Origin: Bacteroidota bacterium
Lineage (GTDB): Bacteria; Bacteroidota; Bacteroidia; 2-12-FULL-35-15
NCBI GenBank assembly: GCA_016707685.1
Contig: JADJHE010000008.1
Coordinates: 31,300 to 95,299, forward strand
Direction: 5' to 3'
Length of the DNA: 64,000 nt
The notes beneath the pieces are model-generated. The model was not told where the DNA came from. It saw only the letters and a program-made list of their open reading frames with translations, and did not search any database. The translations under genes were made by a program, and so were the position numbers. Below, in pieces: positions 7,301 through 45,260 of this stretch. Within the stretch, counting starts at the first letter, position 1; the number at the start of each line of letters is the position of its first letter.

Positions 7301-7683
7301 CTTTTGATATCAAAACAAACGTTTTGCAATATGCTGGTGCGAATAATTCATTGTGGCTTGTTCGGAACAATGAATTACATATTGTAAAAGCAGATAAATG
7401 TCCGATTGGAACGTATGTAGGAGAAACATTGAAATCATTTACAAATCATTCTATACAACTTCAGGAAGGTGATTTAATCTATTTATTTACGGATGGTTAT
7501 GCAGACCAATTTGGAGGCAAGGATGGTAAAAAATTTAAATACAAACAACTACAGCAAGTAATACTTGAGATGAATGATAAACAAATGGATGTTCAGCTGC
7601 AAGTATTAGAAAATACAATTAATAATTGGAGAGGCGATTTAGAGCAGGTGGATGATATTTTAATTGTTGGCATTAAAGTTTGA
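4345..7683 (+). CDS. membrane sensor: signal peptide, two Reg_prop beta-propellers, Y_Y_Y domain, one TM helix, coiled coil, PP2C/SpoIIE-type Ser/Thr phosphatase domain
   Basis: About 14 repeats fit the W[IV]GT..GGL..[FY]D Reg_prop pattern. A TM helix YWFYVSVIFLMALLVYIYI is present. C-terminal motifs VSGDFYW, DCTGHGVPGAFMS, RDGMD and FTDGYADQFGG match the RsbU/SpoIIE PP2C fold. Confidence 0.85.
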   Translation: MKQLLKIKIKNIATIVAMFFCFQLSAQQIKFNNISILQGLSQSTVNCILQDKSGFMWIGTQDGLNKYDGYTFKYYKHLPSQQNSISDNFIQALCEDKNGNIWIGTYGGGLDKFNPVSGTFTSYKNDSSNKQSLSNNVIMSIACDNKNNLWVGTQNGLNYFDTRTGIVERFQYSNNNKQSISSNKISCVYIDKKERVWVGTADAGFNLFDSDRKLIAKFLNNPNDLNSVAKNVIKTIVEDHNGSIWVGTGGAGVDCFNPINFRFEHFQKDEKNKNTLSSNDVWVVFEDADYNMWFGTYGDGLCKYNTKEKIFSQYKNNASLSGSLSNNIVMCAFQDYRGLFWVGTLGGGVDVFDPVKKGFLHFKHRQEDENALSENMVMCFYEDKNKVIWIGTYGGGLNLFDPKTEAFKKYVHDDKNNKSISSNIIRSVFRDSKNNLWIGTYGGGLNLFNEQTQTFTAYKHEDKNSTTISSDDVWCIKEDADGNLWLGTWGGGLNKFNVQTKEFTSYKNNASNLNSISNDRVISLLVDKEENLWVGTNGGGLNLYNKATNAFIKFRYTETDSQSISSDRIRCIIQDKENNIWIGTDGGGFNKYDLKTKKFTRYSEKQGLCNNVVYGIVEDEYGNIWLSTNGGVSKFNSKKNNFQNFDVRDGLQSNEFNQGAYLKTKEGKIYFGGVNGFNSFEPSSIRKNPNRPPVYITSIKLFNNEITKDTASSYIKSLDLNYSDNFLSFEFAALDYTAPEKNQYACKMEGFDKDWISLGGRRFISYTNLDPGKYIFRVKGSNNDGVWNEQGNYIVIYIAPPFWKTYWFYVSVIFLMALLVYIYIRVRTKKLQRDKEELEREVKSRTSEVVLQKDIIERKNKDITDSITYAQRIQQAILPTEQVVKKFFPNSFVLYKPKDIVSGDFYWMEQVGSQNFVAAVDCTGHGVPGAFMSIVGYNLLNQAVNERGIYEPAKILDEMNNGLSKQLRQQGDSMTVRDGMDLSLCSFDIKTNVLQYAGANNSLWLVRNNELHIVKADKCPIGTYVGETLKSFTNHSIQLQEGDLIYLFTDGYADQFGGKDGKKFKYKQLQQVILEMNDKQMDVQLQVLENTINNWRGDLEQVDDILIVGIKV

Positions 7684-10600
7684 TACCCATAAAAAGTACG
7701 TCATCTATTTGATCGTTTCCTTCTTTCCAACGATTAAAAAAGCGATCAATAATCATACTTTGTTTTTCAATTGGTAATACTTTGATGTCTTCTAATAAAT
7801 CTCTTATTGCAGCAATTTTCAGCTTTTTCCCCGATTCTCCACCAAACTGATCGGGATAACCATCTGTGAAGAAATACAAGAGATCTCCTTGGGCTAATTG
7901 AATATCGGTTGTTTCATATTCATTGGTTTCAGAGACTTCCTTTTTTAAGAGTTTTAATTCATTGTTTTTTGAAACAAACACAGGTCGTTTTGTGGAGCAA
8001 ATTCTGACGAAATAGGTTTCAATGTCAATTTCACAAACAACCAAATCAATACTGTCATTTGTTTGGTCTGGGTCGTCATCGAACTGATGCAAAAGAATTT
8101 TTGTTTCCAACTCAAGCGCTGCTAATGCGTGTGCAGGTGATGTAACCTCAGAGCGGGAAGTAATATCTTTTAACAACGTATTTCCAATCATACTCATAAA
8201 TGCACCTGGAACACCATGACCAGTTGCATCGGCACAAGCAATAATCAATTTATTTCCATACAATTCAAACCAATAAAAATCACCACTCACAATATCTCGA
8301 GGCTGAAAGAAAATAAAGGATTCCGGAAAAACATCTTTTAGTTTATTGATACCAGGTAATATAGCATCTTGTATCCGTTTGGCGTATCGAATACTATCTG
8401 TAATGTCTTTGTTTTTCTTTACAATCTCATCTTTTTGTTCTATTACTTCTCTTGTTTTTTCGTTGATTGTTTTTTGTAATTGTGCTTGAAAAACACGGTG
8501 ATTACGTTCTCGAATTTTGATAATGATAAAAATACCATAAGCAAAAATAAGAATACATATGAGGATAAACCAAGTGCGTTTCCAAAATGGAGGGTTGATA
8601 GTAATATTAACAGCGAAAGGAATTTCCGATGAAACGCCATCATTGTTGTATGCCTTTACTAAAAAGGTATAATTGCCATCCGTGATTTTTCCATATTGCG
8701 CAAAGTTGTTATCACTTTTATCCGACCAGTCTTCATCGAAGCCCTCTAGTTTATACTGATAACTAACATTGGTATTTGCTTTAAAACTAATTCCAATAAA
8801 ATCGAAACGAATTTTATAATTATCGTAATCAAGTACAATGTTTTTTAAGCTGTCAACATCCTTATCATTTAACTTGATGCTACTGATGTTTACGATTGGT
8901 GGAATAAGATTTTTTTTGTCTTTGTGCGGGTCAAATTTTATAGCACCATGTGTTGTTCCAAACCAAGCATTGCCGTATGCGTCTTTCGTTAATGCGTTAT
9001 AGTTACAATCGCCATTTATTCCATCGTTTTTATCATAGCGACTAATCAATCTGTTGCCTGCTTTAACCTTGCTTAATCCGCCTCTGTGACCAATCCAAAT
9101 GTTATTGGATGCATCATTGGTAACGCTATAACAATAGTTTGATTTTAATCCATTTTCTGTAGTTAATCGCTCAATATCGCCCTTTTTATTTACTATAAAA
9201 ACACCACTACCAAAAGTAGGTAACCAAAACCGTCCTTCATAATCTTCAAGAATTCCTGTAATGTTTATTAAGTCATTTCCATAGTATATTTTTTTATTTT
9301 TTACGGCATCGTTTGTATCAATGCTGCTTATAAAATTACTATGGGTTGCTATCCACAAGCGTTTGCTTTTATCCAAATAAAGTTGATTGATATTGTTGTG
9401 TGGTAATCCATTTTCAGTTGTATAGTGTGTGGTTATCTTTTTATCCGAATCCAGCTTAAATACACCCGCTTTCGTTGCCCAAAAAGTAATTTTATCGTAC
9501 CCCGTTACATACGAAATAGAATTACTTAAAGCATCATCATTTAAAAATATTGAACTAAAACGGCCAGTGGTGATATCAAAAATGTAAGCGCCATTTTTTT
9601 CTGTTCCTAAATAAAGTGTATTGTTGTCTTTTTTATAAATAGTAGTTACACGGTCGTCAACAAAACCATTTTTTGAATTATAAAACAGCCACTTTTCTTT
9701 TGAATTCAAATCTATTTTAAGCAATCCATTTTCGGTTCCAAACCATTTAACATCATTAATAAAAATAGAAGTAATGTTATTGGTATAATTTGGGTTTGTG
9801 TGCGAATAGAATGTGAATAGGTTGTCGGTTAGCATCACAGCGCCAGAGCCAAATGTTCCTACCCAAATATTGTCCTCGTGATCGGAATAAATTGTTTTTG
9901 TATAATTATTTCCTAAGCCGTTTGCTTCATTAAAAACAGCAAATTCATTGTAAGATAAGGTGTTTTTAGAAAGTGTTAATTTAACAACACCACTACCAAA
10001 TGTTGCTATCCAAAGATTGGAAACCTTATCTTCAAAAACAGCCTGTATGTTTAAAAGATCGCAACCTTCGGGTGGGTTGATTTTTTTGGTTGTATAGCTA
10101 TGTGCTTTTTTTGCAGATGGGCTAATAAGCATCAATCCCAAATCTTGCGTACCAACCCAAAAACTGGTAGAGTTTATTTTTTTAACAATACAGTTAATTT
10201 TCGTGTTTTCTATTTCACTAAGTGCAGCAATAAATTTTGGTTTTCTATTCTCGCCAACAAGTTCATATATAATCAACCCTTCGGCAGTGCCAACGAGTAA
10301 ATCATTGTTTTTAGAGAGTGCAATCGAGAAAACGTTGTATTGATCAAATTCGATTTTAAAGACTTCTACCTCAAACGATTTGTTAATTCTAAAAATTCCG
10401 TCATTTTGTGTAGCACACCAAATAAAGCCTTTGTCATCGCCAATGATTTGTGTAACTGGGCTTTTAGCAAATCCACTCGTATTAATGGATTTAAAGGTTT
10501 TTCCATCAAAAAAAGTAACGCTACCTTGGTTGTGACCAATCCATAAATTCCTGTTTTTATCTTTATATGTGCTAGTAATGAAGTTGTCGCTTAATCCTTC

Positions 10601-10873
10601 TTTGGTATAAAACGTTTTAAAGGTAACGCCATCAAATTTGCAAAAGCCCTCTCCAGTTCCTATCCATAAATAGCCATTTTTATCTTGTACGATTGAGTAT
10701 ACATACGGTTGTGTGATACCGTTATCAACACTGTAATTTTTAAATTGATATGCTTGAGAAAAGCCCGAAAAGCTCGATAGCAGCAGTAGGATAAATGCAA
10801 CTAATTTTTTGAAAATGCTTTTCAAGTTTCTAAAAATTAAGATTAGTAAGTGGTTGTTTTTTTCTTTTGTCAA
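7673..10873 (-). CDS. paralogous propeller/Y_Y_Y-TM-PP2C sensor phosphatase
   Basis: Same architecture and PP2C motifs: DIVSGDFYW, DATGHGVPGAFMS, FTDGYPDQFGG. It is convergent with the previous gene and overlaps it by 11 bp. Its 5' end overlaps the next gene by 44 bp, so the true start may be downstream. Confidence 0.85.
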   Translation of the reverse strand: MTKEKNNHLLILIFRNLKSIFKKLVAFILLLLSSFSGFSQAYQFKNYSVDNGITQPYVYSIVQDKNGYLWIGTGEGFCKFDGVTFKTFYTKEGLSDNFITSTYKDKNRNLWIGHNQGSVTFFDGKTFKSINTSGFAKSPVTQIIGDDKGFIWCATQNDGIFRINKSFEVEVFKIEFDQYNVFSIALSKNNDLLVGTAEGLIIYELVGENRKPKFIAALSEIENTKINCIVKKINSTSFWVGTQDLGLMLISPSAKKAHSYTTKKINPPEGCDLLNIQAVFEDKVSNLWIATFGSGVVKLTLSKNTLSYNEFAVFNEANGLGNNYTKTIYSDHEDNIWVGTFGSGAVMLTDNLFTFYSHTNPNYTNNITSIFINDVKWFGTENGLLKIDLNSKEKWLFYNSKNGFVDDRVTTIYKKDNNTLYLGTEKNGAYIFDITTGRFSSIFLNDDALSNSISYVTGYDKITFWATKAGVFKLDSDKKITTHYTTENGLPHNNINQLYLDKSKRLWIATHSNFISSIDTNDAVKNKKIYYGNDLINITGILEDYEGRFWLPTFGSGVFIVNKKGDIERLTTENGLKSNYCYSVTNDASNNIWIGHRGGLSKVKAGNRLISRYDKNDGINGDCNYNALTKDAYGNAWFGTTHGAIKFDPHKDKKNLIPPIVNISSIKLNDKDVDSLKNIVLDYDNYKIRFDFIGISFKANTNVSYQYKLEGFDEDWSDKSDNNFAQYGKITDGNYTFLVKAYNNDGVSSEIPFAVNITINPPFWKRTWFILICILIFAYGIFIIIKIRERNHRVFQAQLQKTINEKTREVIEQKDEIVKKNKDITDSIRYAKRIQDAILPGINKLKDVFPESFIFFQPRDIVSGDFYWFELYGNKLIIACADATGHGVPGAFMSMIGNTLLKDITSRSEVTSPAHALAALELETKILLHQFDDDPDQTNDSIDLVVCEIDIETYFVRICSTKRPVFVSKNNELKLLKKEVSETNEYETTDIQLAQGDLLYFFTDGYPDQFGGESGKKLKIAAIRDLLEDIKVLPIEKQSMIIDRFFNRWKEGNDQIDDVLFMGIKL

Positions 10874-13785: not shown

Positions 13786-14353
13786 TTAAATAGAGCTGTA
13801 TTCTTTTTCGCTAGTAAGGTTTCCTTTTTCGTCCCACATCATCCATTTCCCTACTTTTTCGCCCATAGCATAGTTCATTTCATAACGTTTAGTGCCATTT
13901 ACATCCCATACTAACCATAAACCATCTTTTTTGCCTTCTTTGTAGAATGCTTGTGCAATTTTTTGTCCTTCTTCGCTCCAACGTAACCATTCTCCTGTTT
14001 TTTCTCCGTTTACAAAAGCTCCTTTTTCCATTACTTTGCCTGAAGCATAAAAATAGGTTACTACACCATGTGCTTTACCTTCTTTAATTTCTAAAGTCGA
14101 TTTTTTAGCACCGTTTTCATCCGTTGAAGTATATGTTCCAGTATATAGGTTGTTGTTTAAATAATAAACACCCTCTTTTTATAGTGATTGTACTAGTAGT
14201 ACTTTTTGTCGAAATAGTAGGGCTTAAATCTTGTGCCGATACATTGATTGCAGACATGCAGCAAACAACTGCAAATGCGATTAATTTTTCATGGCCTTTT
14301 GGATTTAGAGGTAAATAATAAACTTTACCCAAAGTTAAAGACAAAAACAACAA
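13786..14353 (-). pseudogene. MORN-repeat lipoprotein of the YwqK-antitoxin-like family, interrupted by a frameshift at a T5/A5 run. This may be a sequencing error.
   Basis: ORF 14117..14353 carries the signal peptide. ORF 13786..14031 carries the MORN-like repeats GEKTGEWLRW, GKKDGLWLVW and GEKVGKWMMW. My retranslation shows the repeat frame continues upstream to about 14175 in a different frame, with the shift at the T5 run 14176-14180. Confidence 0.5.
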
Positions 14354-14447
14354 TGTTTTTATTACACAGCCATAAATATTTTCTAATGTTAAGTTAATGT
14401 AAAATTAACATAGGGGTTTGATGTAAAGTTTGCCTGTTTTGAATTAA

Positions 14448-14479
14448 AAAGCCCTTGTAATAGCTATTACAAGGGCTTT
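14448..14479 (-). terminator. rho-independent terminator hairpin
   Basis: Perfect palindrome AAAGCCCTTGTAATA-GC-TATTACAAGGGCTTT. On the minus strand it is followed by TTTTTAATT. It sits 3' of the 14497..14820 gene. Confidence 0.7.
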
Positions 14480-14496
14480 AATGTCAATTGATTAAA

Positions 14497-14820
14497 CTAT
14501 TGTTGCTCCAATTCAATAACCAGTGGCGTGTATGAATAAGGATTGATGTTAATTTTAGTTTCAGCGTAAGAGATAAAACTGATTTGTGCTTCTGTTTTTG
14601 CAATGTTGATGCTTGCAGAAAAATTACCGTTTAAATCGCTATAAACGATTTGCTCACCAATTTTAATTTCAGCACCAGCAATTTCTTCACCACTAACTTT
14701 ATCAATGATTTTTCCAGAAACCAATTTAGTAGTGTTTTTTTCAGCATCATTATTTCCATTACCAGCAAAGGAAGCCGTTGCGATGATAAATGTAAAAACG
14801 ATTAAAAAGAAATTTTTCAT
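14497..14820 (-). CDS. small secreted protein with a carboxypeptidase-regulatory-like (CarboxypepD_reg) beta-sandwich
   Basis: Signal peptide present. The pattern GKIIDKVSGEEIAGAEIKIGEQIVYSDLNGNFS is typical of the CarboxypepD_reg fold. Confidence 0.45.
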   Translation of the reverse strand: MKNFFLIVFTFIIATASFAGNGNNDAEKNTTKLVSGKIIDKVSGEEIAGAEIKIGEQIVYSDLNGNFSASINIAKTEAQISFISYAETKININPYSYTPLVIELEQQ

Positions 14821-14971
14821 TGCTTAAATTTTGTGATACAAAAATAGCTTAGCTGCGCAAAAAGTGAGTGATGCAAAAATTAAGGATGTATGAACATTGT
14901 GTTAAGCAATGTAAAGTTTATGTTAATGAAAAATATACCTTATCTTCGTCTAAAATAAATTATAGTATACT

Positions 14972-16190
14972 TTGAAATTCAACGATTTTAATTTTGAGTC
15001 CAGCTTACAAGAAGGGCTTGATTCAATGGGCTTTGAAAACCCAACACCAATTCAGGAGCAAGCAATCCCAATTATATTAAGCAACAAAGACCTTATTGGT
15101 TGTGCGCAAACAGGAACGGGTAAAACAGCAGCATTCTTATTGCCTATTTTAAATAAGCTTACCGCTAATCCAACCGATTTAACCAATACGCTTATTATTG
15201 TACCAACACGTGAGTTGGCTTTACAAATAGATCATGCATTGCAAGGCTTCGTATTTTACATCGGTGAGCTCATTAGCCATTTATGGAGGTAGCGATGGAA
15301 GTGTGTTTGAACAAGAGAAAAAAGCATTAACACAAGGTGCCAATGTAATTATAGCAACACCAGGCCGATTGATGGCCCATTTAAACATGGGTTATGTGAA
15401 GCTGGATAACCTGCAACATTTAATATTGGACAGACTTGATCGTATGTTGGACATGGGCTTTGTGGATGACATTATTAAAATAACTACCTATTTGCCAAAA
15501 CCGACAAACATTGATGTTTTCGGCAACCATGGCACCACGCATTCGCACCTAGCAACCAAGTTGTTGAATGAGCCAGAACAAATTACCATATCACTTTCGA
15601 AACCTGCCGAAGGAGTGGTACAAGGAGCATATTTGGTGTACGATACACAAAAGAACAATTTGATAAAATCGCTTTTATCAGGCAAAGAAAAAGAGTTGAG
15701 TAGTGTCATCATCTTTTTATCGACTAAGATAAAGTAAAAAGAACTGGAACGCGATTTACAAAAGCAGGATTAAAAGCAAAAGCAATTCATTCCGATTTAG
15801 AACAAGGTGAAGCGCGAAGAAGTATTGCGAAACTTTAGAAGTAAACAATTACAAATATTGGTTGCAACCGATATTTTATCGAGAGGAATAGATATTGAAG
15901 ACATTGGATTGGTAATCAATTATGATGTGCCAGGCGATGCTGCGATTATATTCACCGTATTGGACGAACTGCACGCGCTGCTTCAACAGGTGTTGCATTA
16001 ACCTTTATTAATGAGTACGACCAACAAAAATTTGCACAAATAGAAACCTTGATTGCGGCAGAAGTAAAAAAATTACCATTGCCCGAAGGCTTTCAACCAG
16101 GCCCTGTGTATGCTCCCGAAGTAAAAGTGAAAAAACCTTTTGTAAAAGGTAAAAAGCCATTCAGAAAACCAAGACCACAAGGGAAGTAGC
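14972..16190 (+). pseudogene. decayed DEAD-box ATP-dependent RNA helicase
   Basis: Q-motif and motif I (AQTGTGKTAAF) and Ia (PTRELA) are intact. The DEAD box is replaced by DRLD at 15429-15440. At least four frame changes occur, near 15240, 15735, 15810 and 15960. The C-terminal HRTGRAGATG-like motif VI lies in yet another frame. Confidence 0.75.
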
Positions 16191-16240
16191 AGAATTTTTA
16201 TTGGGATTGCTTTATGTTTTCTGAAATCAATATTTTGTAA

Positions 16241-16640
16241 TTGTCATTTTTTCTTGATATAATATGTGTATGTTTTAGGAGAGTTCGGTGACTCTTCTAA
16301 TTCAACATAAAACCTTTTGCTGTCAAGCCATTTAATATTAAACGTTCTAGAGCCCTTTGAAATGTTTTGTTGATCGTTCCAATTAAGAATAAGGTTATTT
16401 TCCACTAATTTAAATTTTCCACTCCATTTTAATCTATCTTTTTCTGCATAAAAGTTCCAGATTTATCGAAACGATAGGTTAAATAACCTTTACTGCAATT
16501 AAAGTTTTTGAGAAGAGCGAATCTTCACAAACAATCCATTCGCCAATAATTGATTCAATTTGGCTAATATTAATATTGTTTTGTGAGAATGTTGAACTAC
16601 TTATGATTACGAATAAGGAAATGACTAAAAGGCTGTTTTT
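16241..16640 (-). pseudogene. small secreted or lipocalin-like hypothetical gene broken by two frameshifts
   Basis: Minus-strand translation starts MGKNSLLVISLFVIISSSTFSQ (signal peptide). It continues in two other frames (..KGYLTYRFDKSGTF.., ..LKWSGKFKLVENNLILNWNDQQ..). No intact ORF of 60 aa or more exists. Confidence 0.35.
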
Positions 16641-16801
16641 ACCCATATTTATTTTAAATTAATTGATTATTGTGTTTAAAACTGTTAATTTAATTCTAAC
16701 GAAAATTTAAAAGCTAGTATGCTTCATCACCGAAACAATTTATTAAAATTTATGAAGTTGTTACAAAGTAAAAATTATTTAAGGAGCGCCCCTATCTAAT
16801 T

Positions 16802-17497
16802 TTAAATTTTGTTAAGTGGTGTATTCTTTTTCTTTCCTATTAGATAAAATTTATTGATAGTTGAATTATCTTCAATTGTTTCAAACCTGTTTTTTATCTT
16901 TTCCCATTGCGTATTGCTATATAAGTTCTCTCTTGAATATGAAGTTTGTATGTTGTTTAGAACAGATATTAAAATAATACCATTCTTATTTAACATGTTA
17001 GAGCACATTTCAATTATCGAGTCAGCTTTTTTTGATTCTATAAAGTGCAAGATATCGGATAAAATGATAAAATCAAATTTAAGTGCTTTCTCATTCTTTT
17101 TGCAAAAGTCGTATGCATCTGTATTAAAGTTTTCAAGGTTAATTGAGTCATAAAATTCTGTTTCATCAATCGGATTGAATTTGTCTTCCTCACCAGTCAA
17201 GCAGTAGCTATTTATTCTCTTAATCCAATCTGTTTTAATAACAGTTTTGTCAATTATTTTGGAATCATCTACTTCTTCCCAAAAGATTGCATATGCAGGT
17301 TTTCTATCGACAGGGGTATAACCGAAATCAACATTATTAATCCTCTTATTCTTCAATAATTCTTGAAGTTGAGTAAAGATAAAATTGCTCCCAATGTCTA
17401 AAACATTGATTCTATTATTTGAAACACGCTTATTTAATTGTTGAATTATTTTTTTCCTCATTACATCCGTTTGGCTCAGTTCATGTTGTAGATTCAT
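16802..17497 (-). CDS. class I SAM-dependent methyltransferase (putative)
   Basis: The motif-I-like INVLDIGSN is followed by an acidic and hydrophobic motif-II/III-like FDFIILSDILHF. The gene is AT-rich. Confidence 0.5.
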   Translation of the reverse strand: MNLQHELSQTDVMRKKIIQQLNKRVSNNRINVLDIGSNFIFTQLQELLKNKRINNVDFGYTPVDRKPAYAIFWEEVDDSKIIDKTVIKTDWIKRINSYCLTGEEDKFNPIDETEFYDSINLENFNTDAYDFCKKNEKALKFDFIILSDILHFIESKKADSIIEMCSNMLNKNGIILISVLNNIQTSYSRENLYSNTQWEKIKNRFETIEDNSTINKFYLIGKKKNTPLNKI

Positions 17498-17609
17498 ATT
17501 ATTACTAAATCAGTATAAGACTTCTAAGAGTTTTTGTAATATCAAAATACAAAATCAAAAAGATAAAAGTGTTTTCGTTAATAAGTGGGGTGGAAGAAAA
17601 TTAGCCATT

Positions 17610-17627
17610 GCAGGTGTTATCACCTGC
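17610..17627 (-). terminator. intercistronic hairpin GCAGGTG-TTAT-CACCTGC between the two methyltransferase genes
   Basis: Perfect 7-bp inverted repeat immediately 3' of the 17640..18395 gene. Confidence 0.3.
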
Positions 17628-17639
17628 AAAATGGTATTG

Positions 17640-18395
17640 CTACTTATTTTTTATAATCATAGCACTTCCTTGCCAATCGGGAAGCTCAATTAACGATTCC
17701 GGAATAGTACTTATAAATTCATTTATCGCTTTTGGTATTCCATCCCAATTGTGATTGTAATCGTGAATAATAATAACCCCACCTTTTGCCATACGAGGAT
17801 AGAAAAATTTTAATGCTTCAATGGTAGGTGCATATAAATCGGCATCTATGTGTGCCAATGCAAATGTTTCGTTTTCTAATCCTACCGTTGTTATTGGAAA
17901 AAATCCAGGTTTATAGATGATGGAATCGTTTCCATTGATGTACTTTTTTACTTCTTCAATACTGGTGTCGGCAAACATATTCGTTGAAAAACGATTGTCT
18001 GTTTGTTGTTCTTGTTTTAAATCATTGCTGGTAAAGCCTTCGAAGGTATCAAACAAATAAAAGGTTCTGCTTTGATCCATATAATGTATTGCTTTTGCAG
18101 TTTCTCCGCGATGTACGCCTAGCTCCGCAAAAGCGCCTTTTACATTATTTTTTTTCAATTGCTCCACCTGAAACCATAAATTATAAAAACGAACTTTATC
18201 ACGATAACTCGCTTCTAGCTTAATGAGTTGTGTGGAAACGAGTTTGTTTTTTACAGCATTTTCCCATGCATAAGGCTTGCTAATTTTATACGACCAAGTG
18301 GTTTCTAAATATTTAAAGCCTAAAAAAAGTAAAATCACAACGAGCAAAATATTTGCCGTTTGAAAAAGAGAGAAACCTAGTAAAAGAAGAATCAT
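17640..18395 (-). CDS. TylF/MycF-family (macrocin-O-methyltransferase-like) SAM-dependent O-methyltransferase with an N-terminal TM helix
   Basis: FAELGVHRGETAKAIHY and IDADLYAPT..VIIIHDY match the Methyltransf_24/TylF signature. Confidence 0.7.
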   Translation of the reverse strand: MILLLLGFSLFQTANILLVVILLFLGFKYLETTWSYKISKPYAWENAVKNKLVSTQLIKLEASYRDKVRFYNLWFQVEQLKKNNVKGAFAELGVHRGETAKAIHYMDQSRTFYLFDTFEGFTSNDLKQEQQTDNRFSTNMFADTSIEEVKKYINGNDSIIYKPGFFPITTVGLENETFALAHIDADLYAPTIEALKFFYPRMAKGGVIIIHDYNHNWDGIPKAINEFISTIPESLIELPDWQGSAMIIKNK

Positions 18396-18508
18396 GCTTG
18401 CATTTTAATGTATTCAAATATACATATTTTGCAATTGCGTTTTGTAGTTGATATTGTTACAATGGTATTAAAGAACGAAATGATTATGAAAAATAAGTGC
18501 CATCTTTA

Positions 18509-18775
18509 ATTTCGCCTCTTCGCGACTTTGTATTATCAGGGCGATTTAGCTTTAGTAAGATTGTGCTCCTCTGGAGCAGTATTGAATTTTAGCTCCATCG
18601 GAGCGTAATAGCAATGGATAATAAAATAGGAAAAAACAATTTGTATCGTAGTGAAATGTTTTAGTTTTATTTCGCCCCTACGGGGCTTTGTATTATAAAG
18701 GCAGTTTAGTTTTAGTAAGATTGTGCTCCTCTGGAGCAGTATTGAATTTTAGCTCCATCGGAGCGTAATAGCAAT
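18509..18775. repeat. tandem direct repeat: two structured units of about 107 bp, period 160 bp, with an identical 65-bp core
   Basis: The core at 18551-18615 is identical to 18711-18775. Each core holds two small hairpins, TGCTCC-TCT-GGAGCA and GCTCC-ATC-GGAGC. The 5' parts differ but each forms its own hairpin: TCGC..GCGA in unit 1 and GCCCC..GGGGC in unit 2. Confidence 0.8.
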
Positions 18776-18916
18776 AGGGAATTAAAACAGAAATTAAGCA
18801 AGCTCTAGAAGAGCGAAATGGTTAATATAATAATAAGTCGATATATAATTATGATTTGTATCAGAGTTATCGCTGACATTATTGTTGATTATAGTACCAA
18901 CAATTATTAGAGAAAG

Positions 18917-18989
18917 AAAAATTAAAATTTATTTAAGGGTTGCTTCATCCGACACACAATTAACCACAAACACTACGGACGAAGCAACC
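18917..18989 (-). terminator. strong rho-independent terminator on the minus strand
   Basis: Stem of 14 bp, GGTTGCTTCATCCG / CGGACGAAGCAACC, with one A-C mismatch. On the minus strand it is followed by TTAAATAAATTTTAATTTTT. Confidence 0.6.
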
Positions 18990-19396
18990 ACCTAAATCCT
19001 CCCTACCCCAATAGGAGTTTTATTGCAACTAATCAGCCAGTAACAACCGCTACCATTGTAATTATTAGTCCCCAGCCTTGCATAAAGTTTGATCCGCTTT
19101 TTGAATTATTGTTATTTTCCATGTTGTTTTATTTTTAATATGAATGAAATTCCTTAGAGGAATAAAAATGAATGTTCCGCGATCTAATGTTATGACCGTG
19201 GAAATAAAATAAAAACAAGAGGAATCAAATTAATAACTGACGGAAGGCAATATAATGTGGAGAGGCCTCTGAGTGGGCCATTTTATTAGAGCTGTACGCT
19301 AGCAGCGAAGTGTTCGACACAAGCGTGAAACGAGAAGCATAAACGTGAAATAATCCTTTGTTATTGGAATGGTGTTGAAAGTTGGGGCGGTAATTT

Positions 19397-19606
19397 TCAG
19401 TGTTTCGAACGCTGGTGTGTAAAATCCCTTCCGAAGAAATAAGTTCTTGTTCGGCATTCGGACCAGGGGTGTTGTGAAATAGTTCCACAAAGCACTTCAC
19501 TTTGTTTTCCATCCTTTTGATGCGTAGACACAGCATTTCCTTTGCTGTATGTTGAGAACAAAACAAACAGCGAAAGTAAAAAAGTAAAAAGGTGTTTTTT
19601 ATGCAT
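19397..19606 (-). CDS. small hypothetical secreted protein of 69 aa
   Basis: The signal peptide is MHKKHLFTFLLSLFVLFSTYSKG. The mature part has two Cys. It lies in a locally GC-richer patch. Weak. Confidence 0.2.
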   Translation of the reverse strand: MHKKHLFTFLLSLFVLFSTYSKGNAVSTHQKDGKQSEVLCGTISQHPWSECRTRTYFFGRDFTHQRSKH

Positions 19607-19711
19607 TATTTCTTTTGCAAAGATAAGAAATTTTAGGAAACTGAATTGTTATTGAGGATCGGAGTCTTGTTGGCTTTATTGTTATTGATTTGTAGCACAA
19701 AGTATTTTTGT

Positions 19712-20173
19712 TTACAATACCATTTTAGTTAATTCAACTTCTAGTCGGTCAAAATTTTCTTCGTTTTTATCGACAACAAATTTTTTAAGCTTGTTGCAGG
19801 CATCTGCAGAATCGAAAATCATTCTAAAAATAATTTTTGTTTTGTTGCTCTCCACTTCTTCAAAAGTAAAAACTACTTGAAACAAAGGTTGTGAATAACG
19901 CTTCCAAGCAATAAGAGTAGGTTTTTCAATTTTTGTAAATTCGCATTCATTGGCATAATTCCCTTTATCTGGACCATGCATAACAAAGCTCCATTTGCCA
20001 CCTGGTTGGAAGTCGAATTCATTAAATGTATTTGTAAAACCAGCTGGTCCCCACCAGTTTTTTAAATGATTAGGATTTGCCCATGCTTCAAATACAAGTT
20101 CTATGGAAGCATTAACAATTCTTGTGCTTCTAATTTCACAGTCGGGTGTTGTTGAAAGATATTCAGTTGTCAT
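19712..20173 (-). CDS. SRPBCC superfamily protein, AHSA1 / polyketide-cyclase-like
   Basis: The pattern ELVFEAWANPNHLKNWWGP...GGKWSFVMHGPDKGNYANE is typical of Aha1-domain SRPBCC proteins. The start was set at MTTEYL. Confidence 0.6.
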   Translation of the reverse strand: MTTEYLSTTPDCEIRSTRIVNASIELVFEAWANPNHLKNWWGPAGFTNTFNEFDFQPGGKWSFVMHGPDKGNYANECEFTKIEKPTLIAWKRYSQPLFQVVFTFEEVESNKTKIIFRMIFDSADACNKLKKFVVDKNEENFDRLEVELTKMVL

Positions 20174-20222
20174 TTTAGCAATGATTTGTTGTATAATCCA
20201 AATATACAAAAATCAAAAAAGG

Positions 20223-20999
20223 TTAATTGAAAAAGTCTGGTTGAGAAAATTTATGGAGAGCAATTAAAAGCAGATTAAAATCAAAAAAATCTTTTGTAAG
20301 ATCATCTTTATTCACTTGATTTTTTTTAATTCTAAATTCAAAATGCTTTTTTCTTCCTTTCAGCATCAAAAACAATTTTCTCTTCTTTATTACAACGTTG
20401 ATTTTATTGTCTTTGTCCATCTCATCCAGAAAGCGGTTGATTTTTTCTATATCCTGATTTTCAATGACACTTTTAAATAATAGAACGCCAACAATGCCAT
20501 CAAAACTTCGACCTAGAGGAGAAACACTATGAAGTTCCGAAATTCGAAAGCGCATAGTATTTATTTTTCCAAATATTAAATCATCGCCATAGCAAAATTG
20601 CAATATGCCACTTTGTAATTCAAGATCTTTAATATCTTCATCGGGCAATATCCCTTTAAATGATAAATGAAAATCATTTGTATAATTATTCAAAACATTT
20701 TTTATAATGGAAGACTTAATTGACCATGTAATTCGCTGCATTATTCTATCGGCAAAGAATTGATACAATGGAATAAAAACGATAGAAGAGAATACTAAAA
20801 TCGCTACAATGATATCCCCTAAATATATTTCCCAATCGGGATAGTGGTATTTTCTTTGTGCGCCAAGTAATTTTATATGGACATATAGAACGCCAATGGC
20901 TCCCAAAAAGATCATTGTTTTCTTTGCCTTTAACAAAAAAGACTTTTGAGCATTGAATAGCTCTTCTACTTTTTGTATGTTATCTTCTAATGCTTCCAT
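20223..20999 (-). CDS. hypothetical membrane protein with two predicted TM helices near the N-terminus
   Basis: Hydrophobic stretches IFLGAIGVLYV and IIVAILVFSSIVFIPLY. No catalytic motifs. Its start adjoins the stop of the TauE gene. Confidence 0.45.
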   Translation of the reverse strand: MEALEDNIQKVEELFNAQKSFLLKAKKTMIFLGAIGVLYVHIKLLGAQRKYHYPDWEIYLGDIIVAILVFSSIVFIPLYQFFADRIMQRITWSIKSSIIKNVLNNYTNDFHLSFKGILPDEDIKDLELQSGILQFCYGDDLIFGKINTMRFRISELHSVSPLGRSFDGIVGVLLFKSVIENQDIEKINRFLDEMDKDNKINVVIKKRKLFLMLKGRKKHFEFRIKKNQVNKDDLTKDFFDFNLLLIALHKFSQPDFFN

Positions 21000-23481: not shown

Positions 23482-23579
23482 TCAGAAATTTGAGGCTGCA
23501 AAAGTACGCTTTTTTATTGAAGAATTAATGCCCTTTAATGTGTTTCCTTATTGATTTTTGCTTTATTTTAGATGAATAT

Positions 23580-25709
23580 ATGAAGATAAATAAAAAATAT
23601 ACGATTCTACTGTTTGTTTTGATAGCTATTCATTCGCTGTTTGCACAAACACCTGTTGTGGATAGTTTGAAAAAATTATCGACCGCAAATGTGAACGATA
23701 CCTTGAAAATGCATGCTTATGCAGAATTGACGTATGAGTACTTATCTATTGATATTGATTCGGCAAAAATGTTTGCCAACTTGGGGATAAAAAAATATAG
23801 CAACAACAAAAATAAATTATTGCTTTCGGATTTGTATGCAGCTTTGGGTACAGCTTATGGCTATGAACGTGATTTTGATAATAGTCTTGTCAATTTTAAT
23901 AAATCACTAGCCATTTTAAAAACAACAAAAGATAAAACGGCTATTTCAAAAACCTATTTCAATATCGGTTTGATATACTACTATACTGCTAAATACGATT
24001 TAGCAATTCAGCAATACATTGAAGCATTAAAATTATTAGAATCAATAAAAGACACGCAAACACTTCCTAATATTTACAATGGCTTGAGTGGTATGTACAA
24101 AGAGATTCGCAACTATGACGAAGCACTTAATTATGGACAAAAAGCCTTAAAATTATTTAGTCAGAATAAAGATTCAGTTGGCATGGCATCGGCATTAAAC
24201 AATGTTGGAAATGTATACGATTATCAGAATAAATTGGATGAGGCACTAGATAATTATCGCAAATCGATGCGAATGAAAGAGCTTATAAAAATGGAAAGAG
24301 GGATGTCTAGTACACTCAACAACATTGGAATTATATTATCAAAAAAAGATAGTGTGTTGCAAGCCTTGGAATATTACAACAAAGCATTAAGCTTTTCGTC
24401 TGTTAACTCCGATAAGATAAGTCAGGCTGTTTCCTATGATGGAATAGGAATGGTGTATTACAAAATGAAACAATACGATAAAGCGCTTTCGTTTTTAGAA
24501 AAAAGCATCGCTATATCTACCGATATTGATTCAAAATTGGATATTGTAAGTACGTATGAAAAAATTGCTTTATGTTATGCAGCTAAAGGGAATTACAAAA
24601 AAGCATTTGATTACCAGCAGTTATTATTTGCAACAAAAGATTCTATTTTTAATGTGGAAAGTTCGAGACAAGTTAACGAGTTGGCTACACAATACGAAAC
24701 AGAAAAAAAACAATTGTTGATTGATAATTTGAATAAGGACAATGCTTTAAAGCAAGAAGAGTTGGCAAAATCCGAATTGCAAGTGAAGCAACAAAACATG
24801 CAAATCATGTTTTTTATTTTAGCGGTATTATTGCTCTCGATATTGTCGTTTTTCATTTTTAGAAGCTACAAACAAAAGAAACAATCGGCAGAAATTATTC
24901 TTTCTCAAAAAGAAGAAGTTGAGCGCCAGCGTGATTTAGTAGAAGAAAAAAGCAAAGAAATTACAGATAGTATTCATTATGCAAAGCGCATTCAGCAAGC
25001 ATTGTTGGCATCCGATACATTTCTAAAAAAGCACATTGCCGATTATTTTATTTTTTACAAACCAAAGGACATTGTGAGTGGCGATTTTTATTGGGCAAAT
25101 GTGATTGATGGTAAATTTGTATTGATAACAGCCGATTGCACAGGACATGGAGTTCCGGGTGCATTCATGAGTTTGTTAAACATTTCATATTTAAACGAAG
25201 CAATTATTGAAAAAAGAATGGATGCTCCGGATAAAATTTTGGATTATGTTCGTTCGCAAATTATTCAATCATTAAATCCAGAAGGCTCAGAAAATGAAGG
25301 AAGAGATGGTATGGATGCTACACTTTGTATTTATGATTTTAAAGGAATGTGGTTGCGTTTTTCTGCAGCAAACAATCCTTTGTGGTTGTATCGTAACAAT
25401 GAAATAAAAGAATTTTCGGCCGATAAAATGCCTGTTGGAATGTATCATGGCGAACAAAAACCCTTTACACAACAAACAATTGGATTAAGAAAGGATGATA
25501 TCGTTTATACATTTACAGATGGATTTGCGGATCAATTTGGAGGCGAAAAAGGCAAAAAATTTAAATATAAAAATCTTCAGCAATTGTTGCTCAGCAATGC
25601 CAGTAAGCCAATGGCAGAGCAAAAACAAATCCTTGAAAAAACATTAAGAGATTGGCAAGGCAATATGGAGCAAGTGGATGATATTCTTATAGTTGGAATT
25701 CGGTTTTAA
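23580..25709 (+). CDS. signal peptide, TPR-repeat periplasmic domain, TM helix, coiled coil, PP2C/SpoIIE phosphatase
   Basis: About eight TPR-like repeats (..A..Y..A...Y....). TM helix IMFFILAVLLLSILSFFIF. Phosphatase motifs DIVSGDFYW, DCTGHGVPGAFMS, RDGMD and FTDGFADQFGG. The start was set at MKINKKY, which gives a proper signal peptide. Confidence 0.85.
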   Translation: MKINKKYTILLFVLIAIHSLFAQTPVVDSLKKLSTANVNDTLKMHAYAELTYEYLSIDIDSAKMFANLGIKKYSNNKNKLLLSDLYAALGTAYGYERDFDNSLVNFNKSLAILKTTKDKTAISKTYFNIGLIYYYTAKYDLAIQQYIEALKLLESIKDTQTLPNIYNGLSGMYKEIRNYDEALNYGQKALKLFSQNKDSVGMASALNNVGNVYDYQNKLDEALDNYRKSMRMKELIKMERGMSSTLNNIGIILSKKDSVLQALEYYNKALSFSSVNSDKISQAVSYDGIGMVYYKMKQYDKALSFLEKSIAISTDIDSKLDIVSTYEKIALCYAAKGNYKKAFDYQQLLFATKDSIFNVESSRQVNELATQYETEKKQLLIDNLNKDNALKQEELAKSELQVKQQNMQIMFFILAVLLLSILSFFIFRSYKQKKQSAEIILSQKEEVERQRDLVEEKSKEITDSIHYAKRIQQALLASDTFLKKHIADYFIFYKPKDIVSGDFYWANVIDGKFVLITADCTGHGVPGAFMSLLNISYLNEAIIEKRMDAPDKILDYVRSQIIQSLNPEGSENEGRDGMDATLCIYDFKGMWLRFSAANNPLWLYRNNEIKEFSADKMPVGMYHGEQKPFTQQTIGLRKDDIVYTFTDGFADQFGGEKGKKFKYKNLQQLLLSNASKPMAEQKQILEKTLRDWQGNMEQVDDILIVGIRF

Positions 25710-25746: not shown

Positions 25747-28700
25747 GTGCCGTTTTTTCTTTTATTTAGTAGTGTTTTTAACGATTTTATTGTGCCCACA
25801 ACAGTACTAAAAAAATATTTTTTATTCGTAGTTGTTTTTTTGTTCGTGCTTTTTTCGAAAGCACAACAAATGAACTTCAAAAACTTTTCTATTGAGGATG
25901 GTCTTCCTCAGTCTCAAATTATTGATATCTGTCAAGACAATACGGGTGTTATTTGGTTTGCTACCAATGGTGGTGGTGTGAGTAGATACAATGGGAATAA
26001 ATTTCTAAACTACAATACAAAAGATGGTTTAAGGAATAACCGTGTTTACGATATTTTCCAAGATTCAAAAAATACCATTTGGATAGGAACAGGCAAAGGG
26101 CTGAATAAATTTCACAATAATAAACTTGTTCATATTAGTGATGCGCAACTTGATCAGAAATCGATTCACAAAATTTATGAAAACACGAATGGTGAAATTT
26201 GGGTAGGTACGAGCGATGGAATTTTTATTTACAACGGTAAAAATTTTAGACCTTTTGTTGGTAACGATTCTATTGGTGCTTTTCAAGTATGGTCTATTCA
26301 GCAAGATAAGGCTGGAAATACGTGGATAGGAACATTGATGAATGGCGTTTTCTGTTATGATGGGAAACAAATGATTCATTTTACAAAAGAAAATGGATTG
26401 ATTGATTCAAAAAACAGAGATATTCTAATCAAAGGAAATCAGGTTTGGATTTCTACTTACAGAGGAATTAATATTTATGATTTATCAAAATCTTATTCGG
26501 GGAATCGTAAACTTGACACATTAAAATTTAATGGCAAACCATATCTTGAAACCGTTTATCGTTTTTACAAAGACACGAGTGGCGCGATATGGGCAGGAGT
26601 TGGTTCGGGGGTTGTGAAAATTACTTATGGGAACATTAAACATATTACAAAGCAAAACGGACTTTGTAGTAATATGATTTGTGGCATTACACAAGATAAA
26701 GAGGGAAATTTGTGGTTTGGTTCATTTGGAGGCGGTGTTAGTAAATACAGAAATGAATTATTTGAGAACATCAATGAAAATCAAGGATTAGCAAACAATA
26801 CGGTTATGTCTTTTTTCAAAGACAGTAAAAACAATATGTGGATTGGTACTTGGGGAGGTGGTGTTTCCAAATTAGATTTAACAACACTAGAAAAACACGA
26901 CTCTATTTCAATTCAAAATTTTATTCAATCAAAAAATGGTTTGGCATTTAACAATGTTTGGAGTATTTGCGAAGACAAGGCAGGAAAAATTTGGCTAGGG
27001 ACTTCAGCTCAAGGTGTAAGTGTATACGATGGGAAAGATTTTAAAAACTATCATATCAAAGATGGTTTGCATGGTATTCGAATTCAAACAATATTGTGCG
27101 ATAAAAAAGGAAATATTTGGATGGCCAATGAAAACGGCTTAGATAAATTTGATGGTAAAACATTTACATATTACGGTGAAAAGGAAGGAATGTCGGCAGA
27201 AGGAGTAAATGCTATTTATGAAGACAACGTTGGAAACCTTTGGTTTGGTTCACCCGATCGAATTATAAAATACGATGGTAAAATTTTTACCACCTTACTT
27301 CGACCAGGCGGTTTCCCTAAAATACGAAATATTATTCGAGACAAGTTTGGTTACATGTGGTTTAGTACAGATGCAGGTGCATGTGTTTATACGGGAAGTA
27401 AATTTTATTTGGTTTCAGAGTCGGATGGTTTAAGTTCAAATACAGTTTATTATGTAAAACCCGATGAAGATGGGAATTTGTGGTTGGGAACAAATAACGG
27501 GATTGATAAGCTCGACCTTTATAAATTTGTAAACAACAATGAAGTAGAGATAAAACATTATGGTAAGGAAGAAGGTTTTATGGGAGTTGAATGCAACCAA
27601 AATGCTTTTTATAAAAACGATGACGGAAAGCTGTGGATAGGAACAATTGGTGGTGTTACCATTTACAATCCTAAAGAAGAACGAATTAATAAAATCGAAC
27701 CCCAAACACACATTACAGGAATTCGTTTATTTTTAGAGGATACAAATTTTAAAAAGTATTCGGATAGTATATTAGATGGACTTCCGATTAATCTTGTTCT
27801 TCCATACGATAAAAATCACATTACGTTTGACTTTATAGGAATATCACATACAATTCCAAACAAAGTAAAATACCAGTTTATGCTGGAAGGAGCCGATCAA
27901 AATTGGTTGCCTGAAGGGAAAGAAATAAGTGCTACGTATTCAAATTTGCCTCCTGGTAAATACACGTTTGTATTAATTGCAAAAAACAATGATGGTATCT
28001 GGAATAAAAACCCTGTTCGTTTTTCTTTCGAAATAGTTCCTCCTTTTTGGCGTCAGTCTTGGTTTTATCTATTGTCGGGTGCAATTGGGATAACAGCAAT
28101 TTATCTTTTTGTTAAAATGCGTGAGCATAGTTTGCAAAGAAGTAGAATGCGTTTAAAAGAAGAAGTAGCAAACAGAACAAAAGAATTGGAAGAAGAGAAA
28201 GAAAAATTGCAAGAAGCATATTCTGAAATTGATGAAAAAAACAAAGACATTACCGATAGTATAAAGTATGCGAAACGAATCCAAGAAGCAATTTTGCCTG
28301 CCGATTCAATTTTTAAACAACACTTGCCAAATTCGTTTGTGTTGTATAAACCAAAAGATATTGTAAGTGGAGACTTTTACTGGTTAGAAAAATGGGGACA
28401 TCAAATTTTGATAGCAGCAGTTGATTGCACTGGACATGGCGTTCCTGGTGCCTTTATGAGTATTGTTGGGCACAACTTGTTAACTCAAACAGTAAATGCA
28501 TTGGGGTTATCGAAACCCGCTTTGGTATTAAATGAAGTAAACCAACAACTCTCCAAAAAACTAAATCAAAATCCAGAAGAAGCAACCGTTCGCGATGGAA
28601 TGGACATTGCTCTGTGTGGAATTAATTACGTTAAAAAAACAATTGAATTTGCGGGAGCCAATAATCCCGTTTGGATTATTAAAAATGGGAAGGAGTTGGT

Positions 28701-29002
28701 TCAACTAAATGGAGACAAATTTCCAATAGGCGCTTTTGTTGGAGAAGAGCTTCAGCAATTTACCAATCATGAATGGCAATTACAAGAAGGTGATATCATT
28801 TATTTGTTTACTGATGGTTATGCCGATCAGTTTGGTGGACCTAAAGGAAAAATTCAAATACAAACAATTCGAAGAGTTGCTATTGTCTGTTTGCAATAAA
28901 CCATTTGCAGAACAAAAAGAACGATTAGAAAAAACAATAGAAGAGTGGCGAGGAGAGTTGGAGCAGGTAGATGATATATTGGTTATTGGAATAAAGATAT
29001 AA
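25747..29002 (+). CDS. propeller/Y_Y_Y-TM-PP2C sensor phosphatase. The C-terminal end is frameshifted at an A5 run (28848-28852).
   Basis: ORF 25747..28899 ends FTDGYADQFGGPKGKIQIQ*. The conserved tail (K)FKYKQ...EQVDDILVIGIKI continues in ORF 28736..29002 in the +1 frame. The paralogs read this region uninterrupted. Confidence 0.75.
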
Positions 29003-32000: not shown

Positions 32001-32193
32001 TGGTTATGCGGATCAATTTGGAGGAGAAAAAGGGAAAAAATTTATGGTAAAACGCCTACATCAGCTATTGATAGATTTGAATGATAAAAAAATGGATGTA
32101 CAAAGCATGCTGTTAAAAAATACTATTGAAGACTGGCAAGGGAATCTGGAACAAGTAGATGATATATTGGTAATTGGAATAAAAATCTCATGA
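29006..32193 (+). CDS. divergent-propeller/Y_Y_Y-TM-PP2C sensor phosphatase. The 5' end is probably frameshifted at an A7 run.
   Basis: The PP2C motifs VVSGDFYW, DCTGHGVPGAFMS, RDGMD and TTDGYADQFGG are intact. If the A7 run at 29017-29023 is read as A8, the TTG/ATG at 29006 gives MKLLKKILLLLLFFVVSATKAQ, a canonical signal peptide. As given, the signal peptide is split between two frames. Confidence 0.75.
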
Positions 32194-38530: not shown

Positions 38531-38607
38531 AGACATAAGAAGATAGACAATTTAAAGTAGTAGACAAAGGACAAGATAAAAAGTAGACAAATAAACAGTG
38601 GACAAGA
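38531..38607 (+). repeat. array of TAGACAA/GGACAAG heptamer repeats upstream of the four-helix-bundle gene
   Basis: agacata, tagacaa three times, ggacaag twice within 77 bp. Confidence 0.7.
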
Positions 38608-44896: not shown

Positions 44897-45247
44897 TTTA
44901 TATTGTTTTTTTGATGACCAATTATTCCTAAATGCGTATCGCTAAAGCTCGTAATGTATTTTAATCCATATCCAAAAACGCGATCCATGCTCGAATGTGC
45001 AAAAAGAATAATACCCGATAATAATAGATATTGATTGTTCATATAAAATCCTAATCCCACAATTATCAAAGCCAATGCTTTATGGTGTACAAAGTTATAA
45101 CAATAAGCACCAATTTGGGTATTTATTAAATAACCAATCATGCTAAATCGGGTAGGAGTAATAACGCTGGAAACCACCACCAATCGAATTGTAGTTGATT
45201 GAAAGCGACTATAGCGATTAAGAACATTACGAGTTCTTCTAGTTGTA
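44893..45247 (-). CDS. small membrane protein (DUF4260-like, tentative). Its N-terminus is frameshifted at an A3/T3 run.
   Basis: My translation of 45184-45247 gives MKQLLQLEELVMFLIAIVAFNQLQFDWWWFPALLLLPD, which then joins ..SMIGYLINTQ.. of the track ORF in another frame. The shift is at 45145-45147. Confidence 0.4.
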
Positions 45248-45260
45248 AAAGTTGTTTCAT

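Follow-up and report, generated by a model that had tools for sequence, protein, structure and literature searches.

A variable cargo slot beside a conserved TylF-type gene, and a cluster of private frameshifts around it, in a Bacteroidota chromosome segment

Two adjacent genes for methyltransferase-type proteins, lying among broken neighbours, raise the question of whether they were acquired together as a strain-specific module or belong to different parts of the chromosome's history. The pair lies in a stretch of 64,000 nucleotides from a Bacteroidota bacterium (GenBank assembly GCA_016707685.1, contig JADJHE010000008.1, positions 31,300 to 95,299), referred to here at its full length as the window, and an earlier note had described window positions 14972-19140 as a zone of gene decay around an AT-rich islet of two methyltransferase genes, likely to be variable or horizontally acquired. 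The locus, small and well defined, belongs to an already known general kind of variable slot region, and the two genes, which encode a protein that we call MT1 and a TylF-type O-methyltransferase, are not functional partners and do not form a unit.

The explanation that we favour on balance combines flexible slots, cassette exchange and very recent private gene loss. In the chromosome of an uncultured bacterium, probably one of the Flavobacteriales, a conserved gene for a membrane-anchored TylF-type protein sits in a flexible segment, flanked by slots that are polymorphic for presence and absence. One of these, slot A, is empty in some strains and filled in others with one of at least three mutually unrelated sets of cargo genes that point in the direction of TylF; the cargo of the window strain is a 1.4-kb AT-rich cassette of MT1 followed by a small secreted-protein gene. 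Strains probably exchange the cassettes by homologous recombination within the conserved flanks, with no dedicated mobility gene, and the lesions in five genes (encoding a MORN-repeat protein, a DEAD-box helicase, the small secreted protein and two proteins of 39 and 127 aa, p39 and p127) most likely record that dispensable genes were lost very recently and that each, once dead, went on to accumulate indels.

A cargo slot beside a core gene

Relatives of the window were found by an exact-protein look-up with the neighbouring acyltransferase, which yielded nine contigs (L001-L009) with DNA 92-99% identical to the window; further searches brought in L058, L059 and L088-L091 and two contigs with the cassette of the window, L010 and L011. 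The gene order in the relatives is ABC-F, TauE, (258/276-aa gene), AHSA1/SRPBCC, the 127-aa gene, the 39-aa gene, TylF, DEAD, a CarboxypepD_reg-like gene, MORN, acyltransferase and thioredoxin-like, with DEAD and MORN intact at 407 and 168 aa. As to the invariant gene order and intact flanks that the earlier note had named as incompatible with an acquired locus, every relative keeps the flanking genes intact, but gene order varies among them. The features of the slot and its core neighbour are as follows.

16190-17600, minus strand: cargo cassette of slot A, 1.41 kb, 27.5% GC, starting directly after the DEAD stop codon
16244-16646, minus strand: small secreted-protein gene, broken into two open reading frame (ORF) fragments; 134 aa once two 1-bp deletions are restored
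16802-17497, minus strand: MT1, intact gene for a 231-aa protein of class I S-adenosylmethionine (SAM) methyltransferase fold, assigned by sub-threshold Pfam matches and predicted fold
17547-17600, minus strand: conserved motif of ~55 nt directly upstream of the first cargo gene, common to the otherwise unrelated cassettes of the window and L004
17605-17634, minus strand: TylF terminator hairpin, 9-bp stem TTGCAGGTG/CACCTGCAA with arms at 17608-17616 and 17621-17629
17640-18395, minus strand: core gene for a TylF/MycF-type O-methyltransferase of 251 aa with a hydrophobic N-terminus (residues 1-27)

The DEAD-box and TylF genes are convergent, and slot A is the space that separates their 3' ends. 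The slot is empty in L001, L002, L003, L007 and L058, where ~55-62 bp run from the DEAD stop to the TylF stop. In L004 it holds an HpaII-like restriction-modification system (a C5 DNA methylase and an HpaII-type endonuclease) with a 171-aa ORF, in L059 a gene for a Zn-ribbon/transmembrane/TPR protein and a DUF2971 gene, and in L010 and L011 the same MT1 cassette as in the window; the cargo genes of all filled alleles are transcribed in the same direction as TylF. The left edge in every allele is the base after the DEAD stop codon, and on the right side every filled allele has a perfect TylF terminator hairpin and the empty alleles a degenerate one. L059 has its copy of the ~55-nt motif internally, between its two cargo genes before the DUF2971 gene, with a degenerate hairpin. 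The indel comparison of 16.2-19.2 kb with relatives that the earlier note proposed thus finds 16190-17600 present, absent or replaced among strains, and near-identical only in L010 and L011. A variable or horizontally acquired locus is an apt description of the MT1 cassette, which is absent in five close relatives, replaced in two and the segment of lowest GC in the window; the TylF gene and any two-enzyme module fall outside that description.

Base composition separates the two genes. No other 1.4-kb segment of the window, the mean of which is 34.4%, has so low a GC content as the cassette, at 27.5% (z -3.4), and the profile stays at 24-29% over 16200-17600 before returning to 34-35% across the TylF gene. 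Both genes that the earlier note called AT-rich methyltransferase genes are there, but only MT1, at 28.3% GC, is AT-rich; over 16800-18400, where a GC and codon-usage profile had been suggested, the TylF part is normal for the window in GC (34.1%) and in GC at third codon positions (0.29). The TylF gene is also found at the same position in nine of nine close relatives covering it (92-99% nucleotide identity), whatever adjoins it, and the earlier idea that the pair marks a strain-specific modification locus fails on this point, TylF being present in every related strain, in normal composition, with or without MT1.

Aligned with L010, the window shows 2 substitutions over 1195 bp of cassette and 15 over the 393 bp of TylF that follow. 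Counting substitutions only, the cassette is ~99.8% identical in L010 and L011 (there are four 1-bp length differences besides), against ~96% for the adjacent TylF DNA. There are no tRNA genes in the window, no recombinase, integrase or transposase domains among the local ORFs (ORF map, Pfam scans and the relatives' annotation), and no terminal inverted or direct repeats at 16190-17600, where the ~55-nt motif stands at one end; an integrase-mobilised genomic island or integron cassette was rejected on these grounds. Near-identical cassettes beside a diverged TylF flank, in a locus without mobility genes, make homologous recombination in the conserved flanks the most likely route by which strains exchange the cassettes.

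Private lesions around the slot

The zone from 14180 to 19469 contains about 20 indel events that are private to the window, mostly homopolymer indels of 1-2 bp, and the frames of MORN, DEAD, the small secreted protein, p39 and p127 are broken against intact orthologues in 5 to 13 related contigs. Broken genes are therefore seen where the earlier note had placed a decay zone (14972-19140), but the zone is larger and also takes in MORN (13786-14292) and the 127-aa gene (19225-19606). Besides the small secreted-protein gene, the genes concerned are these.

13786-14292, minus strand: MORN-repeat gene, broken by two private 1-bp indels, at 14180 (T4->T5) and at 14289 (A6->A5 directly after the ATG)
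14497-14820, minus strand: CarbReg, CarboxypepD_reg-like gene of 107 aa, within the indel zone, intact and free of private indels
14972-16189, plus strand: DEAD-box helicase pseudogene, eight private indel events at 15250-15943, four ORF fragments
19003-19122, minus strand: p39, gene for a 39-aa membrane peptide, cut to 29 aa (ORF 19033-19122) by a private nonsense change, TTA->TGA at 19034
19225-19606, minus strand: p127, gene for a 127-aa signal-peptide protein, frameshifted by a G3->G4 insertion at 19469

The events are distributed as 2 in MORN, 3 in the MORN-CarbReg spacer (a fourth gap there, at 14445, is common to the window and L006 and so not private), 8 in DEAD, 2 in the small secreted-protein gene, 2 in the MT1-TylF spacer, 1-2 near the repeat and the end of p39, and 1 in p127. 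The DEAD-box pseudogene reported by the earlier note at 14972-16190 is confirmed: Pfam DEAD and Helicase_C matches fall on three ORF fragments, the fourth ORF is a C-terminal tail without a match, and the 407-aa gene is intact in all relatives covering it. Its frameshift sites include 15250 (TCTC in the relatives), 15500 (A6 in the relatives), 15549, 15763, 15811 and 15943, and one of the eight events, a multi-base change at 15431-15436, turns the catalytic DEAD motif into DRLD. Classed as non-indel lesions in the broken genes are this change, the p39 nonsense, Q88H and N43Y. In the small secreted-protein gene, restoring the homopolymer deletions at 16453 and 16509 as in L010 gives an intact 134-aa ORF, the product of which has a signal peptide and begins MGKNSLLVISLFVIISSSTFSQ; no family match was found for it. 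The earlier note had called this a broken small lipoprotein gene, and broken it is, but the first Cys is residue 39, so there is no lipobox and a lipoprotein was rejected. Outside the zone, over ~38 kb compared, the private indels are that at 10868 and two frameshifts at 45147 and 45428.

We lean towards reading these lesions as very recent and real, chiefly in view of where they fall. Not one of the 20 indel events falls in CarbReg, MT1, TylF or p39, which together occupy 37% of the zone (P = 9e-5 if the events are independent, ~0.02 if they are grouped into eight clusters), and none of the 68 homopolymer runs in these four genes is altered, against 12 of 118 elsewhere in the zone (Fisher P 0.004). 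Consensus errors should be blind to gene function, yet these genes, including the very AT-rich MT1 with its many runs, are spared while the DNA between them is struck. The assembly is otherwise clean, with a single private indel in ~9 kb when compared with a relative at 99.4%, none in 13.8 kb when compared with a second one, and one window-private length change (10868) among 428 A/T runs of at least 5 outside the zone. Private substitutions stand at about 6 nonsynonymous to 3 synonymous in the broken genes and 63 to 211 in intact ones; the p39 nonsense and the change from DEAD to DRLD are not lesions of the homopolymer type and do not fit homopolymer errors; and compensated indels in close pairs are a natural feature of this population, distinguishing intact alleles of other genes as well.

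The alternative, to which we give considerable if lesser credence, is that the slot architecture is real and the ~20 private indels of 1-2 bp are consensus errors in a poorly supported patch, so that the cell would have all five "pseudogenes" in intact form; such errors could stem from long-read-derived sequence, from low coverage or from strain heterogeneity near the three segmental polymorphisms. Several observations weigh against real decay and favour this alternative. About 20 indels accompany ~13 private substitutions in ~3.2 kb of unconstrained DNA, a ratio of ~1.5 where ~0.1-0.2 is expected, roughly ten times the usual bacterial value; the silent divergence of the window branch (~0.3-0.5%) predicts ~10-16 neutral substitutions in 3.2 kb, in line with the ~13 seen, and 1-3 indels against the ~20 seen. 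The events are mostly homopolymer length changes with more deletions than insertions, and all four of the cassette length differences from L010 and L011 are -1 contractions of A5 or T6 runs. In DEAD, the motif change aside, 21 synonymous substitutions and 1 nonsynonymous separate the window from L007, the pattern of a constrained gene that was working until the indels came. The lesions are private to the window assembly, with eleven to thirteen independent contigs agreeing against it, and an exact look-up of four truncated products found no independent assembly with any of them. The zone also overlaps three strain-level structural polymorphisms, where consensus building is hardest, and another genome of the species (L001/L088, GCA_964268675.1) has private frameshifts of its own in large conserved genes. 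A further weakness of the favoured explanation concerns the exchange rather than the decay: recombination as its mechanism is something that we infer.

A third account, which we regard as improbable, holds that the burst of ~20 indels in 5.3 kb around three recombination-prone slots is real and arose when a translesion-type polymerase prone to frameshifts carried out localised error-prone DNA synthesis, as cassettes were exchanged or DNA was repaired by recombination, after which selection would have purged lesions from needed genes. Break-associated mutation clusters have, to our knowledge, so far been shown mainly in laboratory E. coli, and the cluster, if real, would give a useful example from nature of frameshift mutagenesis localised beside recombination hot spots. 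A mutator lineage deficient in mismatch repair is disfavoured as the source of the indel excess, the private substitutions of the zone being mostly transversions and the private silent changes of its neighbours few. Protein-guided frameshift correction was rejected as a reason for the spared genes, given that DEAD-box helicases would be the easiest to correct. The decayed neighbours call for read-level confirmation before they are labelled pseudogenes.

Several side observations belong here. In DEAD, six synonymous third-position substitutions lie within 34 bp (15605-15638) when the window is compared with L001-L004 and L007; they are not private once L058 and L059 are added, and the patch resembles a short tract recombined in from a functional but more distant allele. 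The indel at 10868 is a private 1-bp T-run deletion where the 3' end of a 335-aa gene, now 331 aa, overlaps the start of a 1050-aa Y_Y_Y/SpoIIE gene. At 44893-45663, a DUF4260 gene (122 aa in relatives) is split at ~45147 and the adjacent 120-aa gene at ~45428, in a patch ~9% divergent from L088 and L090. L001 and L088, from the metagenome-assembled genome (MAG) GCA_964268675.1, carry private frameshifts in large conserved genes that the window keeps intact (thioredoxin-like, a 1108-aa gene split in four, nitroreductase, formyltransferase, a 418-aa gene and a TPR-SpoIIE gene); these are mostly insertions outside homopolymer runs, scattered and not clustered. In contig L092 (ENA ERZ22161304, coverage 1.4x) MORN lacks 46 bp (window 14038-14083) and so yields the same 81-aa fragment through a different lesion; as independent confirmation of the MORN lesion it was a false lead, the match being due to this unrelated deletion, and L092 is either a chimeric contig or another strain with MORN loss. 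An ORF at 52230-52658 that had been considered a further frameshift is spurious, the TetR gene at 51775-52389 being complete.

The two methyltransferase-fold proteins

The earlier note assigned MT1 to class I, and a Rossmann methyltransferase fold is indeed predicted for it (pLDDT, the predicted local distance difference test score, 87.6), but its Pfam matches, to Methyltransf_12/23, lie below the gathering scores (21.5 against 27 and 21.8 against 30) and NCBIfam gives weak UbiG and TehB matches only. The nearest solved structures to the model are small-molecule enzymes (NNMT, TehB and DnrK type), at a template modelling (TM) score of ~0.5 and 11-16% identity. A single near-identical protein was found among 5.8 billion sequences, and the family comprises 23 representatives at E <= 1e-3 among 1.84 billion proteins, of which about a dozen are full-length at ~210 aa; the homologues found sit on contigs shorter than 1.7 kb, from which no genomic context is readable. 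Invariant in the family are D34 and G36 of motif I and an acidic D64 after strand 2, and an LSxILHF block is conserved. Motif I reads LD(I/L)GSN in MT1 and its closest relative (LDIGSN in MT1, with the second glycine replaced) and LDLGxG in the other members. On the strength of the model, MT1 probably represents a very rare, unannotated methyltransferase-fold family of the small-molecule type.

MT1 could instead be a DNA methyltransferase without a partner nuclease, or what is left of a restriction-modification or defence system: slot A holds the HpaII-like system in L004 and the DUF2971 gene in L059, and its cargo is AT-rich and strain-variable. We consider this very unlikely: MT1 has no PADLOC match, its sequence, read directly, contains neither a (D/N/S)PP(Y/F/W) motif nor the PC and ENV motifs of C5-methylases, its closest folds are small-molecule methyltransferases, and its partner gene encodes a secreted protein and no nuclease.

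The second gene answers to the earlier description of a TylF/MycF-like O-methyltransferase with a transmembrane anchor, matching Pfam PF05711 (E 1.2e-23, 84.1 bits against a cutoff of 23) and starting with the hydrophobic segment. Sequence matches in the PDB are to 5i10/4cdz (2e-13), MycF (4e-10) and NovP (1.6e-9), and the conserved blocks E-x-GV-x-RG, D-T/S-F-x-G and D-x-D-x-Y are present. In the alignment with MycF, HIDADLY stands against RMDGDSY and IIHDY against IIDDY, one Asp being replaced by His; the acidic metal-binding residues of the TylF/MycF/NovP family are taken to be an Asp in the DxDxY block and both Asp residues of (I/V)DDY. The best protein matches among GTDB representatives are 72-77% identical, mostly from MAGs of Flavobacteriales and Crocinitomicaceae, and TylF-type genes occur in 46 other species and at 28 other metagenomic loci without the window's neighbours and without an MT1 homologue. 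No glycosyltransferase or biosynthetic neighbours were found in the window, in nine strains or at 76 other loci, and a literature search on TylF in Bacteroidetes gave nothing useful. The sole recurrent neighbour is a patatin-POTRA-Omp85 gene (~760 aa) lying 15-111 nt downstream in 14 genomes of Marinilabiliales, with a gap of no more than 23 nt in 13 of the 14. This neighbour hints at a substrate among the lipids or glycans of the envelope; a reasonable guess is that the TylF-type protein is a membrane-anchored sugar or lipid O-methyltransferase of the cell envelope. As a side observation, this pairing (L037-L050, L057) may reflect a functional link to outer-membrane lipid biology, and it is absent in the window's lineage.

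The hairpin that the earlier note saw between the two genes is present and, lying 10 nt past the TylF stop, is the TylF terminator. We give next to no credence to joint acquisition and joint action of MT1 and TylF as a strain-specific module methylating a surface glycan or secondary metabolite, a reading that the adjacency, common strand and common fold of the pair, and the natural-product sugars methylated by the characterised enzymes MycF and NovP, had made attractive, and that is largely refuted by TylF without MT1 in at least eight related strains, L001-L004, L007, L058 and L059 among them, by the normal GC of TylF, by the terminator between the genes, by the unrelated cargo of slot A in other strains, by the lack of any glycosyltransferase, sugar-nucleotide or polyketide synthase/nonribosomal peptide synthetase (PKS/NRPS) gene nearby and by the lack of an MT1 homologue beside TylF at 76 other loci. 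The lesson for interpretation is that two adjacent methyltransferase genes turned out not to be a module.

Neighbouring segments and known systems

On the other side of TylF lie further segments that vary among strains.

18447-18846, no strand: 400-bp insertion just upstream of the TylF core promoter, with AATT at both edges, only in the window and L001
18938-18989, minus strand: hairpin with a 14-bp stem, downstream of the p127/p39 gene pair
20223-20999, minus strand: 258-aa gene with a weak DUF3137 match, the third presence/absence segment

The earlier note described ~800 bp here without a convincing ORF, containing a structured tandem repeat, a 14-bp-stem hairpin and a 29-aa ORF. All three elements are borne out, and the stretch is actually a 400-bp insertion, a probable terminator and a truncated 39-aa gene. 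The insertion consists mostly of two 129-nt repeats spaced by 160 nt (18505-18633 and 18665-18793), a pattern missed by Tandem Repeats Finder and found by a repeat search and a pattern search. Each repeat has two GCTCC-N3-GGAGC palindromes, found nowhere else in the window, and a third short GC hairpin, the sequence of which differs between the copies. No Rfam family was found in the repeat and intergenic regions (scan of 14000-20500, E up to 1), and the double palindrome had no match in viral contigs. Identity as a miniature inverted-repeat transposable element was rejected, the insertion having AATT at its edges and no terminal inverted repeats. Each copy also holds a 26-aa TTG-initiated ORF (18528-18608 and 18688-18768; MYY[QK]G..LVRLCSSGAVLNFSSIGA) that is conserved between the copies and probably spurious. 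The 14-bp-stem hairpin is probably the terminator of the p127/p39 pair. The whole stretch 18436-19710 (repeat, hairpin, p39 and p127) is missing from L058 and L059, and the p127/p39 module is therefore dispensable. Only the window, L001 and L058 have the segment of the 258-aa gene (20229-20998); L002, L003, L004 and L059 lack it.

Elsewhere in the window, large paralogous sensor-type genes lie at 7673-10873, 25747-28899, 29038-32193, 23538-25709 and 32190-34283, some with Reg_prop, Y_Y_Y and SpoIIE/PP2C domains and others with TPR and SpoIIE (Pfam labels taken from the relatives' annotation). A 138-aa protein encoded at 38598-39014 is labelled 23S_rRNA_IVP/bAvd four-helix-bundle, a family often tied to diversity-generating retroelements; no reverse transcriptase was seen beside it in the relatives' gene lists.

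Set beside characterised systems, the TylF-type protein resembles the metal-dependent sugar O-methyltransferases of PF05711 (TylF, MycF and NovP) in profile score, in its MycF and NovP matches and in its conserved blocks, and differs from them in the N-terminal hydrophobic anchor, in HDY for the DDY of MycF and in being a stand-alone gene without a natural-product or glycan cluster. MT1 has in common with class I small-molecule SAM methyltransferases (TehB, NNMT and DnrK-like enzymes) the Rossmann fold, D34, G36, D64 and the LSxILHF block, but it stands apart in its low identity, sub-gathering Pfam scores, LDIGSN motif and tiny family.

Homopolymer-frameshift gene erosion is described for reduced or host-restricted bacteria, and long-read indel errors look alike. 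The zone in the window is like both in its 1-bp lesions in A/T runs, in having several lesions per dead gene and in its spared intact neighbours; it differs in its short branch, its ~ten-fold excess of indels and their concentration in 5.3 kb instead of genome-wide.

Flexible islets are replacement-type variable slots between core genes, often with restriction-modification or defence genes. Slot A departs from these hot spots in its size of 0 to 3 kb and one to three genes, in having no integrase, tRNA or direct repeats, in the ~55-nt motif common to unrelated cassettes and in an MT1 cargo that fits no known defence family. It matches them in its fixed flanks (the DEAD stop codon and the TylF terminator), in several unrelated cargo sets and an empty state within one species, in low-GC cargo with a restriction-modification system among the alleles, and in cargo that is more alike between strains than the flanks are. 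Slot A is a small, clean case of cargo replacement between convergent core genes without a mobility gene.

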